From contig CM000430.1 of the NCBI GenBank assembly GCA_000165345.1, forward strand, positions 864,001-928,000: a stretch of DNA of 64,000 bases, written 5' to 3'. The stretch's first letter is position 1; every line of letters starts with the position of its first letter. The notes below the pieces were generated by a model. It did no database searches, was not told the origin of the DNA, and saw only the letters and a program-made list of their open reading frames with translations. This document shows positions 6,072 to 48,915 of this stretch, piece after piece. The position numbers and the translations under genes are program-made.

Positions 6072-6395
6072 TGTTAAAGATATTTCAAGGAGAAAAAAAA
6101 ATGAAGGAAGAAAAGTTTAGAATAAAAATAGTAAATTTAAAGTAAAGCTTTATATACCCCCAATTAATTAAAAAAAAAAAAAAGTCTTTACTCTTTTAAA
6201 TATTACTATTTATTCTTATTTAGTTGCATTTTTTATTTCTTTTCTTTCAGAAAAAAAAAGAAAATAGAAATAAAAATTTTTTATTTGATTATTCTTCAGT
6301 TATTATTATTACTATTTGCTTTATTCTCCTCACACCATTTTATTTATTAATACCGGTACTAATATTCTTTCGGCGCCTGTCCACAAAGTCTTTAA

Positions 6396-6440
6396 TGCAT
6401 GCATGAGTTGCAATTACGTGTAATTTGAGTGCATGCAAGT
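6396..6440. promoter_or_regulatory. TGCATGCA box cluster (TAATGCATGCATGAG ... GAGTGCATGCAAG) with a TTACGTGTAA core
   Basis: It lies in the divergent intergenic region between the RAD51-like gene and the CDK-like kinase gene, about 20 bp downstream of TTTCGGCGCCTG at 6369. Confidence 0.45.
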
Positions 6441-6540
6441 AATAATTTATTTGCAATTATTATATAAATAATGTTATATTAAAAAAATTAAAAGTTTTTA
6501 ATAAATAATAATAATAATTAAAAATGATTTGGAGATAATA

Positions 6541-6573
6541 ATAATCATAATCATAATCATAATCATAATCATC
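6541..6573. repeat. (ATAATC)5 hexanucleotide microsatellite
   Basis: Read directly from the sequence. Confidence 0.9.
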
Positions 6574-6756
6574 ACAAAAATATAATATTTCATTTTCAAG
6601 TTTGGAATATATTTATAATATTAATAATTTTAATAAAAAAAAAATAAGGTAAAAACTGCTACAATACTACCAATAACAGCAATATAGCATTAATAAAAAC
6701 ACAAAACAAGGCAAAAACTGCATTACAATAGTTACAATAAAATATCAACTAATACC

Positions 6757-7953
6757 ATGAGAAAAACAAAACAATCCAATCAAAACCAAAATATACCTGA
6801 AAATCAATATATTCCCATTAATAACTATAAAGTTATTAAAATACTTGGAAAAGGTGCCTACGGAACTGTATATCAAGCTATTAAAAAAGATAATCAAAGT
6901 GATACAGAAATGGCTTTAAATATTAATGAAAATTCTTCTCAAAATTCTCAAGATAAATATAAAACAAAAATAAAAACAAAAACAACAAAAAACTATTATA
7001 ATAATAAAAAGTACTATGCTATTAAAGCTTTTGATAAAGATTTATCTAAAAAAGGTATTCATCCAAGTATACTTAGAGAAATTGGTATTCTTAAAGAATT
7101 ATCTAATCATCATTATTTTAATCAATTATTCATTCAATTAGAAGATGTTATACTTGAAAATGATCGTATATTTGCTATTTATGAATATGGTGGTATATCA
7201 TTATTAACTTTTATTGAAGAAAAATGTTCACATTATAATTATAAAAATAATCAAACTCATCCTCACCCTCACCCAATATTAAATCTACAATTTGGTATTA
7301 ATATATTTTTTCAAATTATTAATTCTATACAATTCTTACATAATCTTGGAATTGTACATCGTGATCTTAAACCTGAAAATATACTTATTAATGAAGATAA
7401 TCTACAAATCAAAATTGCTGATTTTGGACTTGCTAGATCTATTCGAAATCATTCATATACTAATTTTACAAATGATGTTGTTACTATTTATTATAAATCA
7501 CCAGAACTTATTATTTATTCAAATATGGATAATTTTAATAATAAAAATCATTTTATTCCAGAAATCTCTCTTCCTTTTTCAATTGATTCTTGGAGTATTG
7601 GAGTTATTGCTCTTGAATTATTTATTATTATATGTAATCAATATAATAATTCTCAAAATCAAAATTATTCAATATATAATACAAGAAATCATCTTAAAAA
7701 TCAAAAAAATGATTCAATTATTTGGTCACCTTTCTTTTTTGAAGGTAATGAACTTTCTGTATTAGATTCTATTCAGAAAATTCTTCATCCAAGTCAAAAA
7801 ATTAATAATCTCAAAAACTTGCTCTTACCATTATTTCAATCTTATCCACAAATATTTTATCTTATTTCAGAATTACTTGAATTGGATCCTAATAAAAGAT
7901 GTTCCTGTATTCAAGCTTTTCAAATACTTGAAAATTTTAAGTCAAATAATTAA
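6757..7953 (+). CDS. CDK-related Ser/Thr protein kinase (cdc2-like; PSILRE variant of PSTAIRE)
   Basis: 398-aa ORF. Kinase motifs are the glycine loop GKGAYGTV, the catalytic lysine in AIK, HRDLKPENIL and DFGLARS. The cyclin-binding helix reads GIHPSILREIGILKEL. There are N/K-rich inserts. Confidence 0.8.
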   Translation: MRKTKQSNQNQNIPENQYIPINNYKVIKILGKGAYGTVYQAIKKDNQSDTEMALNINENSSQNSQDKYKTKIKTKTTKNYYNNKKYYAIKAFDKDLSKKGIHPSILREIGILKELSNHHYFNQLFIQLEDVILENDRIFAIYEYGGISLLTFIEEKCSHYNYKNNQTHPHPHPILNLQFGINIFFQIINSIQFLHNLGIVHRDLKPENILINEDNLQIKIADFGLARSIRNHSYTNFTNDVVTIYYKSPELIIYSNMDNFNNKNHFIPEISLPFSIDSWSIGVIALELFIIICNQYNNSQNQNYSIYNTRNHLKNQKNDSIIWSPFFFEGNELSVLDSIQKILHPSQKINNLKNLLLPLFQSYPQIFYLISELLELDPNKRCSCIQAFQILENFKSNN

Positions 7954-7969
7954 CTATTCACTACAATTT

Positions 7970-11695
<3,726 letters not shown>

Positions 11696-12338
11696 TTTTT
11701 ACCAAATATTAAAGGGTAAAAAAAAAAAAAAAAGTATGCTTTCTTTCTTTATAATTACAGTTTGTTTTTCATTCCCACGCTTATAATGTAATTATTTTAT
11801 TGAATTCTGTGTCAAAAAAATAGGATAATTATCAAACAGTCTTGACCTGTTGTGCATGTATTTTCTGATCATATGCATTTGCATTACCGCTTCTTGCACC
11901 ATTATAGTTTTTCAATTTTATATTGTAGAATAACCCACAAAGGCGTCAATGTCGTATTTACCATCTTTTAAATTAAATTTTGGATATTTGAGAAGATTGA
12001 AATTATATTTTAATAAATATTAAAGAATTGTTTGAAGTTTGTCTTTTTTTTTAAATAAAAAGTTACCATAAAACTTTCCTTTAATAGTTTTATAATTTAG
12101 TATTTACTAATACTAAATTAAATTTGAAACTATTTCATTTTCTATTCTTTTTTTTCCTTTCTTTTTTTTCTGTTGGTAAAAATCTAAAATAATACTTTTG
12201 ATTTAAAATCTGACCATTCTATATATTTAACTAATATATAATTTTTTTTTTTTTTAAATTAATATTTTCAGATTAATTTTTGTGTAACCGCCCCACACGC
12301 AATTAGTCAAATATATAAATACAGAAAAAAAAAAAAAA

Positions 12339-12419
12339 TGCATTGGCGCCAAGTTGTCATTATATTATTAATTCTTGTAATTAAAAAGAAAAAAATTGAG
12401 AAAATGTGGCGCCAATGCA
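12339..12419. promoter_or_regulatory. Inverted pair of E2F-like sites (TGCATTGGCGCCA ... 55 bp ... TGGCGCCAATGCA)
   Basis: The two 13-nt arms are exact reverse complements. They sit in the divergent intergenic region between the coiled-coil gene (minus strand, ATG at 11695) and ERH (plus strand, ATG at 12880). Confidence 0.55.
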
Positions 12420-12879
12420 ATATTATTAGTTATATGGTCTTCCCACATTATTAAAGTAATATTAACAAATAAATATTATTAATAAGTAAAAAATTGGAGG
12501 AATTAACCGCATATTGTGTTAATGATGGGAAATTTTTAATATAGATAATAATTTAAAAACAATCACAATTTTCATTATCATAAACCAAAGAGGGAAGAAA
12601 TAATATCTTTGAAAAAAAATAATAATAATAAAAAGCCTCTTGGATTATTGTTTTTTTTTTTCTTCTCTTTTTCTTATACATCAAACTAGAAGTCAAAAGA
12701 AAATAAACAAAATTCAAATAATTTACTTGCTTAAATATAAATTAAGTGGAAACCTGTCAGATTAAATAATAATAGTATTCCTCAAAAAATTATTTAAAGT
12801 TATACTATTTCTCAATTTTTTTTTTAATTCTTTCTACATATTAAAGTTGTATATTTTTTTCAATTAAATTATTATAATA

Positions 12880-13338
12880 ATGGCACAAAATCAAGGACTT
12901 CATACTCTTTTATTAATTCAATATTCGAATAATATTAGTACAAGATCTTATATGGATTATGACTCTGTATCTCAAGCTGTTGATGGTAAGATGAATTTCT
13001 TAATTTATAAATAATTTAATTAATACTTAAAAAAAATTTTTTATTTTTCATATATTTTCAGGAGTTTGTCAAATTTATGAACAAAGCATAAAATGTGCAT
13101 TTTCTAATTTAAAAGAAGTTACGTACAGCATTGAAGACTTAGTAAAATACATTAACTCACTTTATGATATATGCATGCTCACGTAAGTTAATAATACCTG
13201 AATTTTTGATTTTATGTATTATATATTACTTGATGAATTTTTAGTCGGGATGGAACAAATCGCAGATATATTCCTCACGATCGCAAGTGGATTATTGACC
13301 AGATTTATTTAAAAATGAAAAGAAGAGCAGCTAACTAG
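12880..13338 (+). CDS. ERH: Enhancer of rudimentary homolog (ERH), 3 exons
   Basis: Exons are 12880..12985, 13062..13182 and 13245..13338. Introns are 76 and 62 nt (GTAAGA..TTTTCAG and GTAAGT..TTTTAG). The spliced protein is MAQNQGLHTLLLIQYSNNISTRSYMDYDSVSQAVDG/VCQIYEQSIKCAFSNLKEVTYSIEDLVKYINSLYDICMLT/RDGTNRRYIPHDRKWIIDQIYLKMKRRAAN, 106 aa. It aligns along its whole length with ERH (TILLVQP..YADYESV..GVCKMYEEHLK..YDISQLFDFIDDLADLSCLVY..YNKDWIKEKIYVLLRRQA). Confidence 0.8.
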
Positions 13339-14101
13339 AAATTTAGATAGGAAATCAGAATAATAAATATTAGTATTTTCAATATATTATATATATATTC
13401 TATATTTTGCACATACTGAGTCTCTACAACCTTATAATAGTAATAGTAATAATATTAAAAATAATTATTATTATTATCATTATTGGCCTATTAAAATTCG
13501 GATTAATTAAATAATAAAACTTTATTGGTCATGAAAAATAAGATTATATTGATAACTAATATTAAAAAACAATTTACTCTTGCCATTATGCCTAATATTT
13601 CTAAATATACTTAATTTTTTCCATATTTATTATTATCATCTTTGCATGCATTCATTATTGTTATTATTTAATAATTTTCATGTGGATAAATTTTATTAAT
13701 TTCTGTACCGGCATAATAGTAATTACGTAATACCGGAGTGATAGTAAATTAATTGCATGCATTAAAAAAAAATTTTTTTGATTGCATGTGGATTTGAATT
13801 AAAAAAAATCATATCAAATATTAATAATAATAATAAATTATAAGTAATTGAAATGTCAAATTGATATAAAGCTGATTAAAGAGGGGCAAGAAAAGACTGA
13901 AATTTATTAAACAAATTTCAATATATATAAGAGAAAGATAAATTAGAGATAGAAAAGGAAAGAGGAGAGAAAAAAAACAAATTAAAGACTTGATTTTAGT
14001 AATAATACTATTATTGAAATAAAGAAAAACGTCTAATTTTTAAATAATAATATTTACATACAAATATATATAATATTTATTTATAATATAAATTTAATTT
14101 A

Positions 14102-15267: not shown

Positions 15268-18200
15268 TTATTGTTTTTGCAAGCTCTTTTGTTTTGAAAT
15301 GTAAAGCTCTTCCTGAGAAGTCATATAGTTATAATAAGCAGAATTCCCAACGAGGTTGGATCTTTCTCCAACAACTACAACTGAGCCATACTGTGCAGCA
15401 ATTGCTGCTCCACCTAGAACATCCTCCACATCAATATCCTTCAAAATATCTGCTAGTGCTTTGGCTTTTTGTTTATGAACTTTTTTGACCCACTTATGCT
15501 TTCGAAGGTCAAAAACATCTTGGATTAAACAATTCAATCTTGTTGAAATAGATGTATTCTGTAATTCTCTTAGTCTTCCAAACCATTGATCCACAATCAT
15601 CTGTGATTTCTCATTAGAATCCAAGTAATATCCTGTAGTCATAATTAATTGGCAAAGACATTCTACAGCATATTCATCAGGATTCTCTTGTATCATTACT
15701 AGATCAAATACTAGTTCATTCAAACTTCTCATTGGGAACATCTTTCTAATGAAGAGTTCTCCAATCAGTCGGATTATCCCCAAAACATGTAACTTTCGCT
15801 TCCTATACAATATTGCCAGCTCCTCTGAATCGTATTTCTCACGCTCTTCATCTGTTGGAGTCATATTTCGAGGCATATTCTTAAACTCTTGTTCACATCT
15901 TGCCAACAGGGCTTTACTAAAAGCAATTGTTGACTTTCCATCTTTATTCACAAGAACTGGACTCCTCCATTTAAGTATCTGACATAAATCTGCATACATC
16001 TCCGAGAAATCAGGCTCTGTTATTGCTTTATCCAATACTTGCTTCACTAATTCCTCTAGTTCATCCACATTCTTAATCTCATCAATACATACAGCGAGCT
16101 TCTCTGCTATTACTGTAAACTTCTCCACAGTTATTTTATTCAGTAGACTCTTCACAGCTCTCCTTACCGTTTCTAAGGAGTCAACAGTCTGGCCTCCATG
16201 TAAACTTCGTCTCCACGGTCCAACTACTCCGCTGGTACCGCTGCTGCTGCTACTACTACTACTAGTACTGTTGCTATTACTATTACTATTGCTACTACTA
16301 CTGCTGCTAGTAGGAGTTATATTATTACCATTGCCACTACCACCAGTATTATTAGAACTTCCCTCTTTATTATCTGAAGCTGGAATTGACGATTCTAATT
16401 TCTCTCTTCCTTCAATATCTCTGTTTGTTTTTAGGTCGTTCTTCTCTGCAACGATAGAGCTTTCATTAATATTGGTATTGATATTAAAGTCAGCGGATTT
16501 GTTATTTCCATCCAAGTATTCAGAACCCTTGCAAGATAACTTATTACTCATAGAATCTGATCCAGTTGTCACTTTTGCAGAACCAGTATTCTCCGATTCA
16601 TTTGAAGCTGTGGATAACTTCTTTCTAGAATCAACTGATTTCCCTTTCTCTAAACTCATTTCTATATTTGAGGGGTGCTGAGTAACTCCACTTTGGGCCT
16701 TATTTGATATGTTCTTGGACTCATTTTCATTTGGTGAAGCTGATGAAAATACATCTCCGTTATGTGTCTTCTGTTGATCCCCAGTTACATATTTAGGTCT
16801 TTCTTTGGGATGCCCGCCAACTTGGTGACCAGTGGACATTTGACCTCCATTAGTCCCTCCTGATGGGTTGTTGATATTCCTCAAATTCTTATTAAACCTC
16901 TTCTTGTTCTTTTTTTTTTTTAGATCTTCCGAAGTTGTACCACCTACTGCATTCTGCCCATACATATGACCTCCGCTACCCTCTGTTGAATGTTTTGGAT
17001 GAACAAAATTCTGGTTTGGCCCGCCATTGCATGCGTTTGTACCCTTTCCCACATTCTTTGGTCCAGAATATCTTCCATGGCGCCCATATGTGTGATCCCC
17101 GCCATTTTGATTTTTCCATGAACCACCAGTATTATTAGAGAAGTTGTGATTATGACTGTATTGGTTGTGATTATTTGAAGGAATATTTGATCTCAAATTA
17201 TGATCAGTATTGGATTTTTGAGTATTAGAGTAGTCATCTTTAGTCATATCCTTATGTTCTGCAGCAAAATCAGAATTATTGCTCTGTTGTGAATGGGATG
17301 GTTTTTGTGATTGAGCCTGAGGCTGTTGTTGAGTTATGGGCTGGTTCTTTTGTCTTTGTTCAACATTAGCTGTAAGATTATGTTCAGATTCGGAACCTAT
17401 TATTGTTGTCGTTGTCGTTGTTGTCGTTGCTGCTGCTCCAGACCCTGGCTTCCCATTTGAAAAATTCTTGTGTAAAACTGTTCTTGATTCCTTGAGAGAT
17501 GCGTCATTATTGTCTTTTTGGTTAACTCCATGTGATCCTCCTTTACCAATACTGTCCTTGTGCTGATGGTAGTTTGAGTGCTCTCGAGCGCCATGCTGCC
17601 TGCCATACCCATAGTAGTGAGAATCCCCTCCTCCTCTTCTATTTGGAGTTGCATGAAAATCCTTTCTAGAGGTGCTAATACCATTGTTGTTTTGAGAAGA
17701 ATAGTGTTTTCCTCCTTCCTCTTTTGTTGTGGTAGTATGAGGCGTAACATTAGTAATATTGGAAGTATTCGTTGTTGATGATATTACAGTAGTATTTGCG
17801 GGTTTAGATGAGGTAGATGTCGCTACTACTTCTGAGCTAATACTAGTGGTATTTTCAATAGCAGTATTATTGGAAGGGCCATTTTGGAATTGCTGCTGAG
17901 ATTTGTTGTGCTGGTTAAGTTTAGATTGAGAGTTATGCAAAGTCCCTCCTGCACCTCCACCCGAGTTAGAGGATGGGGGAGGTTGTTTTCTATTCAGATC
18001 GTATCCGCCTCCGGAAGAACTTCCATGATTATGTTGTCTATTTCCTGAGTATCCGTATCCTCTTCCTCTTCTATCTTGGTTGTATCTACCCTCATGGTGG
18101 CTGTTATGGCTCGATGACGAGTATGTCTGGTGCTTTTGTTGGAAGTTAGATGATATCTGTCTCTGACTAACTTGTTTGGGATGTTGGGTAGTATTTTGGC

Positions 18201-18975
18201 CTTGGTGTTGTTGCTGGTGTTGTTGTTGCTGCTGGTGTTGGTGTTGTTGCTGGTGTTGGTGTTGTTGTTGCTGGTGATGTTGTTGATGATGTTGCTGATG
18301 ATGTTGTTGTTGATGATGTTGTTGATGATGTTGTTGTTGTTGGTGTTGGTGGTGTTGTTGTTGTTGGTGTTGTTGGTGTTGTTGTTGTTGTTGTTGGTGT
18401 TGTTGCTGATGATGTTGTTGTTGCTGACGTTGTTGTTGGTGATTCTGTTGTTGATGATGGCTTGGCTGTATCTTTTCTGGTTTATTATTCTTTGCATGGC
18501 TGGGTTTAGAATTGTCATCATTTCCTGTAATATAAGTGCTATTATTATTAGTAACATTAGAGTGTTGTCCCTTATCGGAGTTGTCTCTATGAGTACTATA
18601 ATATTGGTCTTTAACACCTCCATTGTTAACAGAGAAGTTTTTGTTAGAACTACTAACATTATTTACATGTTTATTGCTATTTAGACGTGGTTCGTTGTTA
18701 CTCATGTGTTCTTTATTTCCATTGTGATTGCTTACAATCTCATGAGAACTTTCACTCACATCCTTAGAACTCCTACTTATATTGCCATTCACGTGATTAT
18801 CATGCAAACCTCCGCCAGTACTTGCATTTGTGGATACATATCTGTTGTGTATTTTATCCTTTTCTTTGCCTATACTGCTCTTTTGAGCTCCATTCGTTGG
18901 TGACCTTTGAAAGGGACGCCTGAACTTTCGCTTCTTATCATTAGTATGACGCTCCTGTTGTTTCTCTGCCACCAT
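15268..18975 (-). CDS. MIF4G-domain protein (eIF4G-like) with a ~950-aa low-complexity N-terminal region
   Basis: 1235-aa ORF. The C-terminal ~250 aa carry a MIF4G-type HEAT-repeat motif (ELVKQVLDKAITEPDFSEMYADLCQILKWRSP...LHVLGIIRLIGELF...DPDEYAVECLCQLIMTTGYYLD). The N-terminus is S/N/G/H-rich, with a ~100-aa Q/H tract encoded by CAA/CAC/CAG repeats. Confidence 0.7.
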   Translation of the reverse strand: MVAEKQQERHTNDKKRKFRRPFQRSPTNGAQKSSIGKEKDKIHNRYVSTNASTGGGLHDNHVNGNISRSSKDVSESSHEIVSNHNGNKEHMSNNEPRLNSNKHVNNVSSSNKNFSVNNGGVKDQYYSTHRDNSDKGQHSNVTNNNSTYITGNDDNSKPSHAKNNKPEKIQPSHHQQQNHQQQRQQQQHHQQQHQQQQQQHQQHQQQQHHQHQQQQHHQQHHQQQHHQQHHQQHHQQQQHQHQQQHQHQQQQQHQQQHQGQNTTQHPKQVSQRQISSNFQQKHQTYSSSSHNSHHEGRYNQDRRGRGYGYSGNRQHNHGSSSGGGYDLNRKQPPPSSNSGGGAGGTLHNSQSKLNQHNKSQQQFQNGPSNNTAIENTTSISSEVVATSTSSKPANTTVISSTTNTSNITNVTPHTTTTKEEGGKHYSSQNNNGISTSRKDFHATPNRRGGGDSHYYGYGRQHGAREHSNYHQHKDSIGKGGSHGVNQKDNNDASLKESRTVLHKNFSNGKPGSGAAATTTTTTTTIIGSESEHNLTANVEQRQKNQPITQQQPQAQSQKPSHSQQSNNSDFAAEHKDMTKDDYSNTQKSNTDHNLRSNIPSNNHNQYSHNHNFSNNTGGSWKNQNGGDHTYGRHGRYSGPKNVGKGTNACNGGPNQNFVHPKHSTEGSGGHMYGQNAVGGTTSEDLKKKKNKKRFNKNLRNINNPSGGTNGGQMSTGHQVGGHPKERPKYVTGDQQKTHNGDVFSSASPNENESKNISNKAQSGVTQHPSNIEMSLEKGKSVDSRKKLSTASNESENTGSAKVTTGSDSMSNKLSCKGSEYLDGNNKSADFNINTNINESSIVAEKNDLKTNRDIEGREKLESSIPASDNKEGSSNNTGGSGNGNNITPTSSSSSSNSNSNSNSTSSSSSSSSGTSGVVGPWRRSLHGGQTVDSLETVRRAVKSLLNKITVEKFTVIAEKLAVCIDEIKNVDELEELVKQVLDKAITEPDFSEMYADLCQILKWRSPVLVNKDGKSTIAFSKALLARCEQEFKNMPRNMTPTDEEREKYDSEELAILYRKRKLHVLGIIRLIGELFIRKMFPMRSLNELVFDLVMIQENPDEYAVECLCQLIMTTGYYLDSNEKSQMIVDQWFGRLRELQNTSISTRLNCLIQDVFDLRKHKWVKKVHKQKAKALADILKDIDVEDVLGGAAIAAQYGSVVVVGERSNLVGNSAYYNYMTSQEELYISKQKSLQKQ
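18190..18470 (-). repeat. Imperfect (CAA/CAC/CAG)n coding trinucleotide repeat (poly-Q/H)
   Basis: The plus strand reads as tandem TTG/GTG/CTG triplets. These are the reverse complement of CAA/CAC/CAG and lie inside the MIF4G gene. Confidence 0.8.
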
Positions 18976-19970: not shown

Positions 19971-20025
<55 letters not shown>

Positions 20026-29751: not shown

Positions 29752-29794
<43 letters not shown>

Positions 29795-44533: not shown

Positions 44534-45510
44534 TTCTCATGTTAACTGCTTCTATTTGTTTAAATCTGCTTAAATAATAACTTTAAGTCTTTTAATCTGT
44601 GAATTCTAGATACCTGTAATTCACGACCAATACATTGAATTTCATCAAAAACAAAATTATGAAAATAAACTTTAAAAAAACCCGTGTTTCTTTCTCTATA
44701 AATATCTTTGCCTTTTACTATACTGCCTTTCTGAATTATAATAACAATAAGTAATAATTCCAGAATTCTTTTGACTCAATTTGAAATATTAACCTTTAAA
44801 TGTTTTGGCGCCATGTCATTTTGACATTAACATTTGTAAGAATTACTATAAATATTGTTAGTATTATTATTGTTACAATTAATTCATTATTCCAACTTTT
44901 AATTCGTGAATTCAAATAAATTTCTTTAATTTAGTTGATTGAATGTCTTTTTAACTTTGTTATATTATTTTCAAAATGTTCTTAAACTTTTCCTTAACAT
45001 GTAACAATTTTGTTATAACTTTAAAATTAATTTAATAATTTAATTAAATGAAATTAACTCATTAATGTATTTTTATTTGTAATTGAAATTATAAATGAAG
45101 AATAGTATTGCTTGCAAAAATTGATTATTTATTGCTTCACGAACTTTCAACATAAAATTCAAGATTATTCACTATGTCAAATCAATAAAAAGTAGAAAAA
45201 GCTTCTCTCTTGAATTTTGTTCATATCTCCATTTATTAAATAATAATAACAATAATATTAATAGGAATCATATATAACTATTGAATACAATTTTTAAAAA
45301 AATTATATATATAATAAACCAAAATTATAATACTAAAACTAATAGAATATTTATGTACACAAAATTTGCATGCAACCCTATCTCTCTAATGTAACATTGC
45401 ATGCAAATTTCGATTTTTTGTTAATAATGACACGTAATCAATTATAATGACCTCCCCACACTTGGCGCCCAATGAATTATTCGGGTAATTTTAATATTGC
45501 AATAATTATT

Positions 45511-45552
45511 ATCAAAATCTTATAATAGTGATCACTATTATAAGATTTTGAT
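45511..45552. repeat. Perfect 42-bp palindrome (ATCAAAATCTTATAATAGTGATCACTATTATAAGATTTTGAT)
   Basis: The sequence equals its own reverse complement. It sits about 50 nt downstream of the stop codon of the minus-strand lipase gene. Confidence 0.95.
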
Positions 45553-45603: not shown

Positions 45604-48069
45604 TTATTTTCTCCTGGATCCATACTTGATATTACGAATAGTATCCTTGATAGCTTTTTCTAGAAAATTCATATGCTTAATTCTCATAACATGTGGCCAT
45701 GTTCTCCTTTCACCTTCAGTTATAAAGTGAAGCATATCATCATATGACGGATGATTAATACACCTATACCAATCAAAAAGGGATACTCTTGGAGTAATAG
45801 TAACATGACCTTCAATTTCTTGTAACATCCAAAAATTGCTAACATCTTTTCCAAATAACTTTGGAATTAATTTCAGTTTTGCTAATTTAGTATACCTATA
45901 TTTAATATCTAAAGTTAACCAATTTAAAACATTATGTAAAAATGTTCGCTCTGGGTGAATTATGCTTGTATTTATTGGATTTACTGAAACAAAAGGTACA
46001 TGATGTGGGTTTACTTGTGATACAATAAATTGTCGTACATTAAATAATGTTGATAACTCTTTATGTGGTATATCTTGAGAAATTGATCCATCCATCCATT
46101 TCATTCCTGGTGGAAAATATCGGATTATTTTATTGGTATGATTTTCTTTTGCAAATAATTCTGCTACTGGCATTAATCCTGGTAATGCACAAGAAGCTGA
46201 AACTGCACTCCAAAGTAAAATATCTGGAGTAGTAATACAATTTAAAACTAATGGTTCAGTAAATTCTGGAGTTACATAAGTTGGACTCACTGTTATTGTT
46301 ACTATTCTTCCTGTTAATTTATATGCTTCATAGAATGTATAATTCTTAAAGTAAGTCTGACAAGTCTTAATAAATTCTTTTGGATCTATCATATAACCTT
46401 TTACTAGGAAATGACGGATCTGATCTAATAATGGAGGAAACCAACGATGACCATGCATATTTGAAACTGTTGGTTTAATATATTCGTTTAAAATCTCTTC
46501 ATTACTTTTTGTTGCAAGTATTGCTGCAACAATTGAACCTCCACTTGTGCCATTGATTATTTTTGGCATTATATCTTGTTCTAATAAAACTTTAACAACA
46601 CCCAAATGATACATTGCTAAAGCTCCTCCTCCACTTAAGCATAAAGCAGTTTTGCCTGTTGAATGCCCTAAAAGTTCTAAATAATGAATTAAGCTATTAC
46701 TTGCTAACGAGCCTTCACTTTTTGAAAATGTTAGAACTGATCCAGTACCTGTTTCAAAGCTAAATTGGCTCATATAATTCTTTCTTACTTTATTTTCATA
46801 GTAATAACCCCAATCAGAATTCCATCTATCACTACCATCCTTTGAAATATTAAACCCACTATCGATCGCTTGTAAATCATTATCATACTCCTTACAATGA
46901 CATTCTTTATTAATACCGGAATTTAATTCGTCTTTATTTACTTTATTTTCTTCATTATTTGCCAAACATTTTTCACATGTTTGAATAGAAACATTCTTTG
47001 ACATATTCTCCATTCTAAACTCTGATAAAGAAGAAATTGAAGTATTCATTAAATCTCTATTTTTTAAAGATATTCTACCAGATGAACTTTTATTATTCAT
47101 TCTTCCTGTGCTTGAAAGCTCTTGCTCATTACTAGTCAAGTAAAGATTTTTTGTCTCTTCTTTAATTGAATCACTATTCGAGTTTTCCTTTTCTTCCTCT
47201 AAAAGCCTTTCTATATCATCAAAATCAAAACCTTCATCGCCATCTTCCATACTGAAATTCATTGAATTTTCTTCTATTTCCTTATTGAATAATGAACTAC
47301 TTGAATAAATACTTGATTGTTTTGAGAAGCTTATCAATCTTTCTATTGAATTTGATCTTGAATCCTGATCAGAAGAAAGTTTATATGTATTTCTATCACT
47401 TAAAGCATTCTCAAGTTCTATTGAAAGTTCTGGAGATTTTGAACACATTGTCAAAAACTTTAATACATTCTCAATCTCATCCTCAAATTCATCTATTAGA
47501 ATCTTTGTACCAGAAAACGCTTTGTTATATAATGCTTGTTTTGATATTGACGCAAAATTCCTATCGCAACACCATCTTAATAGAAATACCAATTTCTTCA
47601 AATTATTGTTCTTTCTTGCTTCTTTCAACCTAGTTATATACTCCTTTAAATAAATCCATTGATAATCATCAGTCTCCTCAACTGATCTCCATTCATATCC
47701 ACCACAAATCTCATCCAATTTAGTACCAATATTAAACCATTCATCATAACTATTTGATTGTTCTAATCTGTAATATAGTTCATCTCTTGCTGTATGGAAA
47801 CTTCTAATCCATAAACTTAATCTTAATAATAAACTTGACCATATAAATAGTATAATATTTATTGATATTCTAAATATATGATATAATCCCAGCATTACCC
47901 TCCCAAACGAAAATAGAAATGAGCCCAATAACCATAAGCACCATGTCATCCATATTAATGCATATTGTCTAATTCTTGCATTAATTAAAATCAATAATGC
48001 AAATGTTGTTAAAAAAGTTGTTGAAAATATCAAATGGACCAAAAATATTACCAACCATGTACTAATCAT
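45604..48069 (-). CDS. Patatin-like triacylglycerol lipase (SDP1/TGL4 family)
   Basis: The N-terminus has transmembrane helices. A DUF3336-like region follows (YDEWFNIGTKLDEICGGYEWR). The patatin domain carries the oxyanion motif LCLSGGGALAMYHLGVVKVL and the GxSxG motif INGTSGGSIVAA. The first ATG on the minus strand is at 48069; the ORF track extends to a TTG at 48090. Confidence 0.8.
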   Translation of the reverse strand: MISTWLVIFLVHLIFSTTFLTTFALLILINARIRQYALIWMTWCLWLLGSFLFSFGRVMLGLYHIFRISINIILFIWSSLLLRLSLWIRSFHTARDELYYRLEQSNSYDEWFNIGTKLDEICGGYEWRSVEETDDYQWIYLKEYITRLKEARKNNNLKKLVFLLRWCCDRNFASISKQALYNKAFSGTKILIDEFEDEIENVLKFLTMCSKSPELSIELENALSDRNTYKLSSDQDSRSNSIERLISFSKQSSIYSSSSLFNKEIEENSMNFSMEDGDEGFDFDDIERLLEEEKENSNSDSIKEETKNLYLTSNEQELSSTGRMNNKSSSGRISLKNRDLMNTSISSLSEFRMENMSKNVSIQTCEKCLANNEENKVNKDELNSGINKECHCKEYDNDLQAIDSGFNISKDGSDRWNSDWGYYYENKVRKNYMSQFSFETGTGSVLTFSKSEGSLASNSLIHYLELLGHSTGKTALCLSGGGALAMYHLGVVKVLLEQDIMPKIINGTSGGSIVAAILATKSNEEILNEYIKPTVSNMHGHRWFPPLLDQIRHFLVKGYMIDPKEFIKTCQTYFKNYTFYEAYKLTGRIVTITVSPTYVTPEFTEPLVLNCITTPDILLWSAVSASCALPGLMPVAELFAKENHTNKIIRYFPPGMKWMDGSISQDIPHKELSTLFNVRQFIVSQVNPHHVPFVSVNPINTSIIHPERTFLHNVLNWLTLDIKYRYTKLAKLKLIPKLFGKDVSNFWMLQEIEGHVTITPRVSLFDWYRCINHPSYDDMLHFITEGERRTWPHVMRIKHMNFLEKAIKDTIRNIKYGSRRK

Positions 48070-48915
48070 TGTCAGATGTATTACATGCAAACAATATTAC
48101 ATGCTTACATGCATGTGGATAAAATTAATATTTATATATAATATATAATAATAATAATATAACCAGCTTCTTCAATTAATTTTCCACACCTTTTATACAA
48201 TACTTGGATCTGAGTTAAGGATTTGAAGTTATTTCACAAAGCTTGTAAAAGTAATAGAAATAATTTAATTATTTTTATTATTTTGTTTTTTTTTTACCAT
48301 TTTACTTAATAAATTTATATATACAATTTAATGTATAGCTCCAAACTCATTAATTTAGTATTTTAGGGAGTACTTGTTTTACCAATTCTTAGATTAGCAA
48401 ATATAGGAAAATATAACTACCCTTAATCAAGTTATTTTGGGGAAAAATAAAAAGAAAAAACTGATTATAATTTTTTTTTTTAAATTTTTAATTTAATTTT
48501 TGTGTCAATTTTTAAATGCAATTTCCCCACATGCCATTTATTTTTCTTCCTCGCTTACGTGAAAAAAAAAATTCATTGCACATGTACCGCGCAAACTACT
48601 AAATAAGCCAAAGAATTAATTAAAATAATTAATACGTGTAATATTATATTTATTTATTTATAATTGGAACAAATTTCAGTCAAATACCTAGTAAATCCAG
48701 ATTTAATTCAATATTTCTATGACCCACAGGTTAATGGAAGCTTGAATCTATTTGGATTTGTTGGAAAGGACATTTTGAGGGAATATTGTATTAAATCTAG
48801 AAATCCACTTGAGGAAATTAGAATTAAAAAATAAAATAAAATAATAATATCAATAATAATAAATCAAGAGAATCAAATTTCCTTGGTCACCAAATTATCA
48901 AATTATTTTTTGTTG

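Follow-up and report, generated by a model that had tools for sequence, protein, structure and literature searches.

Two conserved E2F-like sites with outer ApiAP2-type boxes between the divergent ERH and coiled-coil genes of Cryptosporidium parvum

In metazoans and plants, canonical E2F sites are of the type TTTSSCGC or, in their palindromic form, TTTGGCGCCAAA, and the adenovirus E2 promoter provides an example of paired, inverted E2F sites. Head-to-head gene pairs in mammals are served by bidirectional promoters with symmetric E2F and NF-Y/CCAAT sites.

In Cryptosporidium, E2F-type motifs are regarded as the dominant elements of promoter control, and the motifs most over-represented upstream of C. 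parvum genes are the E2F motif 5'-TGGCGCCA-3', the G-box, and the ApiAP2 motif 5'-TGCAT-3' (Oberstaller 2013, PMC3734150). A 2025 review gives the E2F motif as [A/T][C/G]GCGC[G/C][A/T], and states that almost no such site has been tested, most of the regulatory components of Cryptosporidium, E2F sites included, being without experimental validation (PMC12246861). The pentamer TGCAT was bound by four C. parvum AP2 domains in protein-binding microarrays (PMC4117751), and the AP2_1 motif, TGCAT or TGCATGCA, is bound in vitro by cgd2_3490, cgd1_3520, cgd8_3230, and cgd5_4250. The E2F proteins of C. parvum are cgd1_1560 and cgd6_1430, and its DP proteins are cgd7_3650 and cgd8_1850. [quoted passage not shown] The intergenic spaces of C. 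parvum are of around 0.5 kb (PMC1779779), and the genus is without an Rb-family partner (PMC3734150).

The pair of sites considered here lies in the 64-kb stretch of C. parvum DNA that was analysed (hereafter, the window), between a coiled-coil gene and the gene of the enhancer of rudimentary homologue (ERH), which are divergently oriented, as an initial, sequence-only reading of this DNA had proposed (Table 1). Their start codons are 1184 bp apart, the pair corresponds to about 882,390-882,470 of CP141119.1, and the nearby kinase ORF has exact matches in three assemblies, in one of which (CP029781.1) the 1184-bp intergenic sequence is matched exactly as well. The ERH protein spliced from the window is identical to the C. 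parvum Iowa II entries (cluster: EAZ51413.1, CPATCC_000519). Among the hits obtained for the coiled-coil protein, the matches are confined to Cryptosporidium, with the C. hominis orthologue being named “C2 NT-type domain-containing” in one source, and a Pfam search of the N-terminus of this protein returned nothing significant.

Table 1. Positions, in the window, of the paired sites, the motifs found around them, and the flanking genes.
Feature	Position	Strand	Description
Arm 1	12339-12351		TGCAT 12339-12343 (ApiAP2 AP2_1-type pentamer) and E2F-like TGGCGCCA 12344-12351
Extended palindrome TTGGCGCCAA	12343-12352		At arm 1
ATTGG (reverse CCAAT)	12342-12346		Inside arm 1
Spacer	12352-12406		55 bp, A+T-rich; A5GA7 tract 12383-12395
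Arm 2	12407-12419		E2F-like TGGCGCCA 12407-12414 and ATGCA 12415-12419 (reverse complement of TGCAT)
CCAAT	12412-12416		Inside arm 2
A14 tract	12325-12338		Adjoins arm 1
T14 tract	12242-12255		Matches the A14 tract
CCCCACAC	12291-12298	+	41 bp left of arm 1; CACA core in all seven aligned species
CCCACA	12442-12447	+	23 bp right of arm 2
Kinase ORF	6757-7953		
Coiled-coil gene	7970-11695	-	1241 aa; gene calls on C. parvum assemblies
ERH (PF01133)	12880-13338	+	106 aa; gene calls on C. parvum assemblies
ERH exons	12880-12985, 13062-13182, 13245-13338	+	Spliced protein

The two arms, TGCATTGGCGCCA and its exact reverse complement TGGCGCCAATGCA, form a perfect inverted repeat, in which the pairing stops at 13 nt, given that the next bases, a/a on the outer side and a/g on the inner side, are unpaired. 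When every perfect inverted repeat with arms of 13 nt or more and no more than 100 nt between them was listed for the whole window, this pair was the only one with at least six G/C per arm, the remainder being poly-A/T, (TA)n, or A+T-rich repeats with no more than four. No such G/C-bearing repeat arose in any of 100 dinucleotide-preserving shuffles of the window, and the 13-mer of the arm, with up to two mismatches allowed, occurs three times, where 0.2 occurrences are expected. A chance origin of the pair is thus excluded, and the perfect 13-nt repeat and its 55-bp spacing, as originally described, are borne out.

The symmetry of the pair has a more restricted meaning, however, as the 8-nt core TGGCGCCA is palindromic in its own right, and the two arms are therefore “inverted” through the outer TGCAT and ATGCA only; when viewed on the + strand, the two sites also form a direct repeat of 9 nt, TGGCGCCAA. 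The intergenic region (11696-12879) has its midpoint at 12287, and the centre of the pair, at around 12379, is displaced by some 90 bp to the ERH side, which means that its description as lying midway between the two genes is roughly right, although not exact. The cores are 650 and 713 bp from the annotated ATG of the coiled-coil gene, and 466 and 529 bp from that of ERH.

Each arm had been read as a GCAT-type box fused to an E2F core, and this composition matches the motifs published for C. parvum, given that both cores are exact matches to the E2F-like motif, and the five bases at the outer end of each arm match TGCAT, or its complement, exactly. In the window, where the G+C content is 27%, TGGCGCCA occurs seven times, in comparison with 0.02 occurrences expected from shuffles, and GGCGCC occurs 13 times, whereas the other palindromic hexamers made up of G and C only are found between zero and three times each. 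All but one of these 13 sites are outside the long ORFs, which account for 65% of the window. Eight GGCGCC sites elsewhere in the window are clearly upstream, at approximately 200-310 bp before the start of an ORF, and the pair is farther from the start codons (ca. 467 bp for ERH and 650 bp for the coiled-coil gene) than any of them. Given this greater distance, the pair may serve only one of the genes, an unannotated 5' exon, or some other transcript. Neither the recurrence of the motif across the window nor the CCAAT pentamer found in each arm had been mentioned in the sequence-only reading.

As for the outer boxes, the arms read TGCATTGG and CCAATGCA, and the full AP2_1 palindrome TGCATGCA is not found at the pair, which thus carries the 5-mer only. 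The non-coding density of TGCAT in the window is 1.9 per kb per orientation, and at such a low density, two abutting, mirror-image copies would be unlikely to arise by chance. TGCA is not a general flank of the GGCGCC sites of the window, so that the fusion is specific to the ERH/coiled-coil locus.

The locus was compared with its counterparts in C. hominis, C. meleagridis, chipmunk genotype I, C. ubiquitum, C. canis, C. felis, C. bovis, C. serpentis, C. muris, and the Cryptosporidium sp. from run SRR31860986. The order of the MIF4G gene, a 186-aa gene, ERH, and the divergent coiled-coil gene is the same in nine full-length loci, with ERH not being called in the C. muris locus, and a tenth locus being short and covering the coiled-coil and kinase genes only. 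Exactly two GGCGCC cores are present in C. parvum, C. hominis, C. meleagridis, chipmunk genotype I, C. ubiquitum, C. canis, C. felis, and the SRR31860986 species, and at least two cores were found in no more than 0.1% of the composition-matched shuffles of the intergenic region of each species. The core-to-core distances in these eight species are 63, 65, 65, 53, 56, 47, 32, and 49 bp, and neither the length nor the sequence of the spacer is conserved.

When seven species were aligned with MAFFT, the only runs of at least 7 nt without variation in the whole region were TGGCGCCAA (12344-12352) and TGGCGCC (12407-12413), i.e., one in each arm. The most conserved 12-mers of the 1184 bp, scored with C. 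hominis left out, are CATTGGCGCCAA in arm 1 (0.99) and GGCGCCAATGCA in arm 2 (0.96), and an alignment-free comparison of the seven intestinal-clade intergenic regions recovered TTGGCGCCA and TGGCGCCAA as the only 9-mers common to all of them. As the background identity of the intergenic region to C. parvum is only 0.48-0.49 in C. felis and C. canis, the invariant cores represent a genuine footprint. On this comparison of sequences, both cores are clearly under purifying selection in the eight species, across the intestinal clade. Loss at the orthologous loci had been named in the sequence-only reading as grounds for giving it up; instead, eight species have retained both cores, and motif identity and conservation agree on the E2F-like nature of the pair with its GCAT-type flank. 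In the literature found, site-level conservation of the E2F motif down to C. felis and C. canis is not reported, the comparison of PMC1779779 being limited to C. hominis.

The pair is absent from the C. bovis, C. muris, and C. serpentis loci. In C. bovis, there is a single degenerate site, TTTAGCGCCAAA, adjoining ATGCAT (ATGCATCTTTAGCGCCAAA), and in C. muris and C. serpentis there is none at this locus, so the pair is not required throughout the genus.

The outer parts of the arms vary among species. The perfect repeat has 13 nt in C. parvum, C. hominis, and C. meleagridis, 15 nt in C. ubiquitum, and 7-10 nt in chipmunk genotype I, C. canis, C. felis, and the SRR31860986 species. At site 1, an adjoining TGCA is found in seven of the eight species, with a displacement of 3 nt outward in C. 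felis, and it is changed in the remaining one, chipmunk genotype I, while at site 2 it is found in six, displaced by 1 nt in chipmunk genotype I and lost in C. felis and the SRR31860986 species. Both boxes are kept in C. parvum, C. hominis, C. meleagridis, C. ubiquitum, and C. canis, and the distance between TGCA and the core varies from 0 to 3 nt among species. Given this variability, and given that TGCA is not a general flank of GGCGCC, the AP2 part is the weaker half of the explanation.

Further motifs are found around the arms. An A-rich run precedes arm 1 in all eight species with the pair, and the CCCACA box on the right is kept in C. parvum, C. hominis, C. meleagridis, chipmunk genotype I, C. 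ubiquitum, and C. canis, but not in C. felis; CCCACA and TCCCAC are among the 6-mers common to all seven intergenic regions. As for CCCCACAC, its reverse complement, GTGGGG, fits the G-box and its CACAC fits the AP2 CACACA class, according to the classes of PMC4117751. These two boxes may be parts of the same module.

When set against the described systems, the locus is closest to the E2F-like motif of Cryptosporidium (Bankier 2003, Oberstaller 2013, Xiao 2025), with which it shares the same core, a non-coding upstream position, and over-representation, and from which it differs in the mirror-image fusion of both copies to TGCAT boxes. Its A/T-rich flanks and poly-A/T tracts are also like those of the open-chromatin peaks of C. 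parvum, many of them bidirectional promoters, although, according to the abstract of that preprint, a peak has one E2F motif, located at the 5' ends of polycistronic transcripts, and the ERH locus has two copies 63 bp apart. With the canonical E2F sites, the pair shares the symmetric GGCGCC core, the 5' T and 3' A flanks, the presence of two close sites, and the promoter location, whereas its T-run is shorter (ATT and TGT, rather than TTT) and the distance between the sites varies from one species to another. Against the canonical TTTSSCGC, ATTGGCGC agrees at seven of the eight positions and TGTGGCGC at six, and the opposite strand of arm 2 also reads ATTGGCGC. Exact copies of TTTGGCGC are found at three other sites of the window. 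As in the bidirectional promoters of mammals, the genes are divergent, the intergenic region is shared and short, and sites that are independent of orientation are found near its centre, although a distance of 1184 bp from one start codon to the other is long by the standards of C. parvum, and the shared use of the region by both genes is putative.

The arms are probably two E2F-type cis-regulatory sites with outer TGCA(T) ApiAP2 half-sites, in the centre, rich in A/T tracts, of what would be the common promoter region of the two genes. Under this interpretation, E2F/DP heterodimers would bind each palindromic GGCGCC core, which reads identically towards either gene because of its palindromic nature. 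The cores, together with the flanking poly(dA:dT) tracts, would hold the promoter free of nucleosomes, and one or both of the genes would be transcribed from this open region. The TGCA(T) boxes, and possibly the CCCACA and CCCCACAC boxes, may then be contacted by ApiAP2 proteins of the TGCAT- or CACACA-binding type, which would modulate transcription according to the stage of the life cycle. The binding of E2F/DP, the open chromatin, the positions of the start sites, and the dependence of both genes on the sites are what the literature would lead one to expect, and the region is a candidate bidirectional promoter, as suggested by the divergent orientation of the coding sequences.

The variable spacing favours two independently bound sites over a rigid symmetric complex. 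Helical phasing was considered and rejected, given that the distances between the cores in the eight species lack a fixed phase, and a rigid, cooperative dimer of dimers is therefore unlikely. The symmetry had also been taken to suggest one element serving both directions of transcription; what is conserved, however, is two separate sites, 32-65 bp apart, and not a rigid, symmetric 81-bp unit. A more elaborate version of the same idea is that the mirror cassette TGCA(T)-TGGCGCC...GGCGCC-(A)TGCA is a composite element, on which a TGCAT-binding ApiAP2 protein and E2F/DP would bind side by side and cooperate, which has a small, though appreciable, chance of being right. The cassette, with both of its boxes, is counted in six of the eight species if chipmunk genotype I, with its shift of 1 nt in the right arm, is included. 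If the idea is true, a conserved element would connect the ancestral E2F system with the apicomplexan AP2 system at a bidirectional promoter, and the grammar of the cassette might recur genome-wide.

Other interpretations of the two arms have to be weighed against that of E2F-type sites. The cores may be functional and yet be read by a GC-box binder other than E2F/DP, or form a general nucleosome-excluding or boundary element, with only a superficial likeness to E2F sites, which is rather improbable. The binding of E2F/DP to the motif in Cryptosporidium is without experimental demonstration (PMC12246861, with a caveat in PMC3734150), and the canonical T-run is present only in part; in addition, the motif is found upstream of 161 of 200 expression clusters, which peak at all time points, as would fit a general promoter element (PMC4117751). 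Nevertheless, the symmetric [C/G]GCGC[G/C] core and its T/A flanks are the contacts of the E2F-DP heterodimer (Zheng 1999, via PMC3734150), and Cryptosporidium is both the sole apicomplexan genus to have retained E2F/DP and the sole one reported to have this motif dominating its upstream regions (PMC3734150, PMC12246861). It is very unlikely, in turn, that the arms are head-to-head CCAAT boxes for NF-Y-type proteins, as in many bidirectional promoters. The pentamer is found in both arms, C. parvum has three CCAAT-binding proteins, and the CAAT-box-like motif GGCCAATCT is over-represented upstream of its genes (PMC3734150, PMC12246861), although the flanks of the arms differ from this published motif. 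The pentamer is broken, moreover, in C. canis (AGTGG, CCATT) and C. felis (TTTGG, CCCTA), as well as in arm 2 of chipmunk genotype I (CCTAAT) and the SRR31860986 species (CCAAA), and as GGCGCC is invariant in all eight species, CCAAT was rejected as the constrained element.

A functional RNA stem-loop of around 80 nt, which had been offered as an alternative if the region is transcribed, or a DNA cruciform, would account for the perfect pairing in C. parvum, where the sequence folds with a 13-bp stem on either strand (-27.5 and -24.9 kcal/mol, with z scores of -5.6 and -5.9), and yet a strong fold is the automatic outcome of any perfect, G+C-rich repeat. The outer arms differ among species by changes that disrupt the pairing and are not compensated, with the exception of a single G-U case in C. 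canis, i.e., a change from U-A to a G-U wobble, which is the only change on both sides, and the covariation term of RNAalifold is +1.29. The loop, for its part, varies from 24 to 57 nt among species, and what is conserved in both arms is their sequence, as would be expected of DNA bound by proteins. In the intergenic region, Rfam returned one unrelated match only, below the threshold, and ARAGORN returned no tRNA. With the asymmetry of the outer arms and no real covariation, the hairpin is unsupported and its function extremely unlikely. As for the mobile elements, short terminal inverted repeats around an A+T-rich interior resemble a miniature inverted-repeat element, and the 81-bp unit might be read as a small remnant with 13-nt terminal inverted repeats, or else as a functionless chance repeat, both of which can practically be discarded. 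The arms are found at the same syntenic position in eight species, with an interior that has diverged freely, and chance is ruled out by the enrichment, the inverted-repeat shuffles, and the per-species shuffles of the cores. The mobile element was also rejected on the grounds that the unit is single-copy in the 64 kb and has no target-site duplication, its flanks being AAAAA and ATATT.

The E2F-type motif class has already been described for C. parvum, and the pair is an ordinary, well-supported instance of it, to which the present comparison adds a doubled, AP2-flanked version at one locus and the clear purifying selection on both cores in the intestinal clade. The current picture is unchanged by it, although the comparison of species now resolves single regulatory sites in Cryptosporidium. 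The locus also provides a clean test case, with two invariant sites in a fast-diverging 1.2-kb spacer and two readable flanking genes, and the adjoining AP2-type boxes permit a direct test of the interplay between E2F and AP2.

Some further observations were made on the same motifs. In the 13-kb syntenic blocks of C. bovis, C. serpentis, and C. muris, there is no GGCGCC, GCGCGC, or CGCGCG, and the intestinal-clade loci have between two and five GGCGCC each; in this small sample, the GGCGCC-free bovis and gastric loci may reflect a loss local to the promoter or a different usage of motifs. The neighbouring divergent promoter (6072-6756), between a 497-aa gene and the kinase gene, has a single GGCGCC, at 6372, with two TGCATGCA boxes 20-60 bp away (6396 and 6430). 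This site is kept in C. parvum, C. hominis, C. meleagridis, and chipmunk genotype I only, which indicates a faster turnover than that of the ERH pair.

The full palindrome TGCATGCA has 12 copies in the window, none of them inside a long ORF (0.54 per kb in non-coding and 0.00 in coding sequence). Two of them, with symmetric flanks, make up a second mirror-image pair at 45362-45410, AAATTTGCATGCAA and TTGCATGCAAATTT, with 21 nt between them and a GGCGCC at 45464, some 55 bp away. In addition, TTGCATGCATT is found twice between ERH and the next gene of the + strand, at 13642-13652 and 13753-13763, 111 bp apart.

Upstream of the coiled-coil gene, at 150-280 bp from its annotated ATG, there is a strongly conserved block (11846-11975), which contains TCTGATCA (11864-11871), the sole 8-mer other than those of the E2F sites that is common to all seven intestinal-clade species, and CCCACAAAGSCGTC (11934-11947), the conservation of which extends to C. 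bovis, C. serpentis, and C. muris. The gene model of C. canis starts within this block (MGKYDIDAFV...), and the frame of C. parvum is off by 1 nt. The block may represent a 5' exon missing from the annotation, a uORF, or a promoter element, and a six-frame tblastn search of the sequence upstream of the ATG gave matches in all the frames, owing to the conservation of the DNA as such.

Elsewhere in the window, the - strand gene at 15268-18975 has a G+C content of approximately 39-40%, in comparison with 27% for the window, together with a long His/Gln repeat and orthologues with a MIF4G domain. Most of the perfect inverted repeats of the window are long intergenic (TA)n microsatellites (19975-20022 and 29755-29792). 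Finally, a perfect inverted repeat of 19 nt with a 4-nt loop, ATCAAAATCTTATAATAGT / ACTATTATAAGATTTTGAT, is located at 45511-45552, just downstream of the stop codon of the - strand ORF at 45604-48090, and may be a hairpin of its 3' end.
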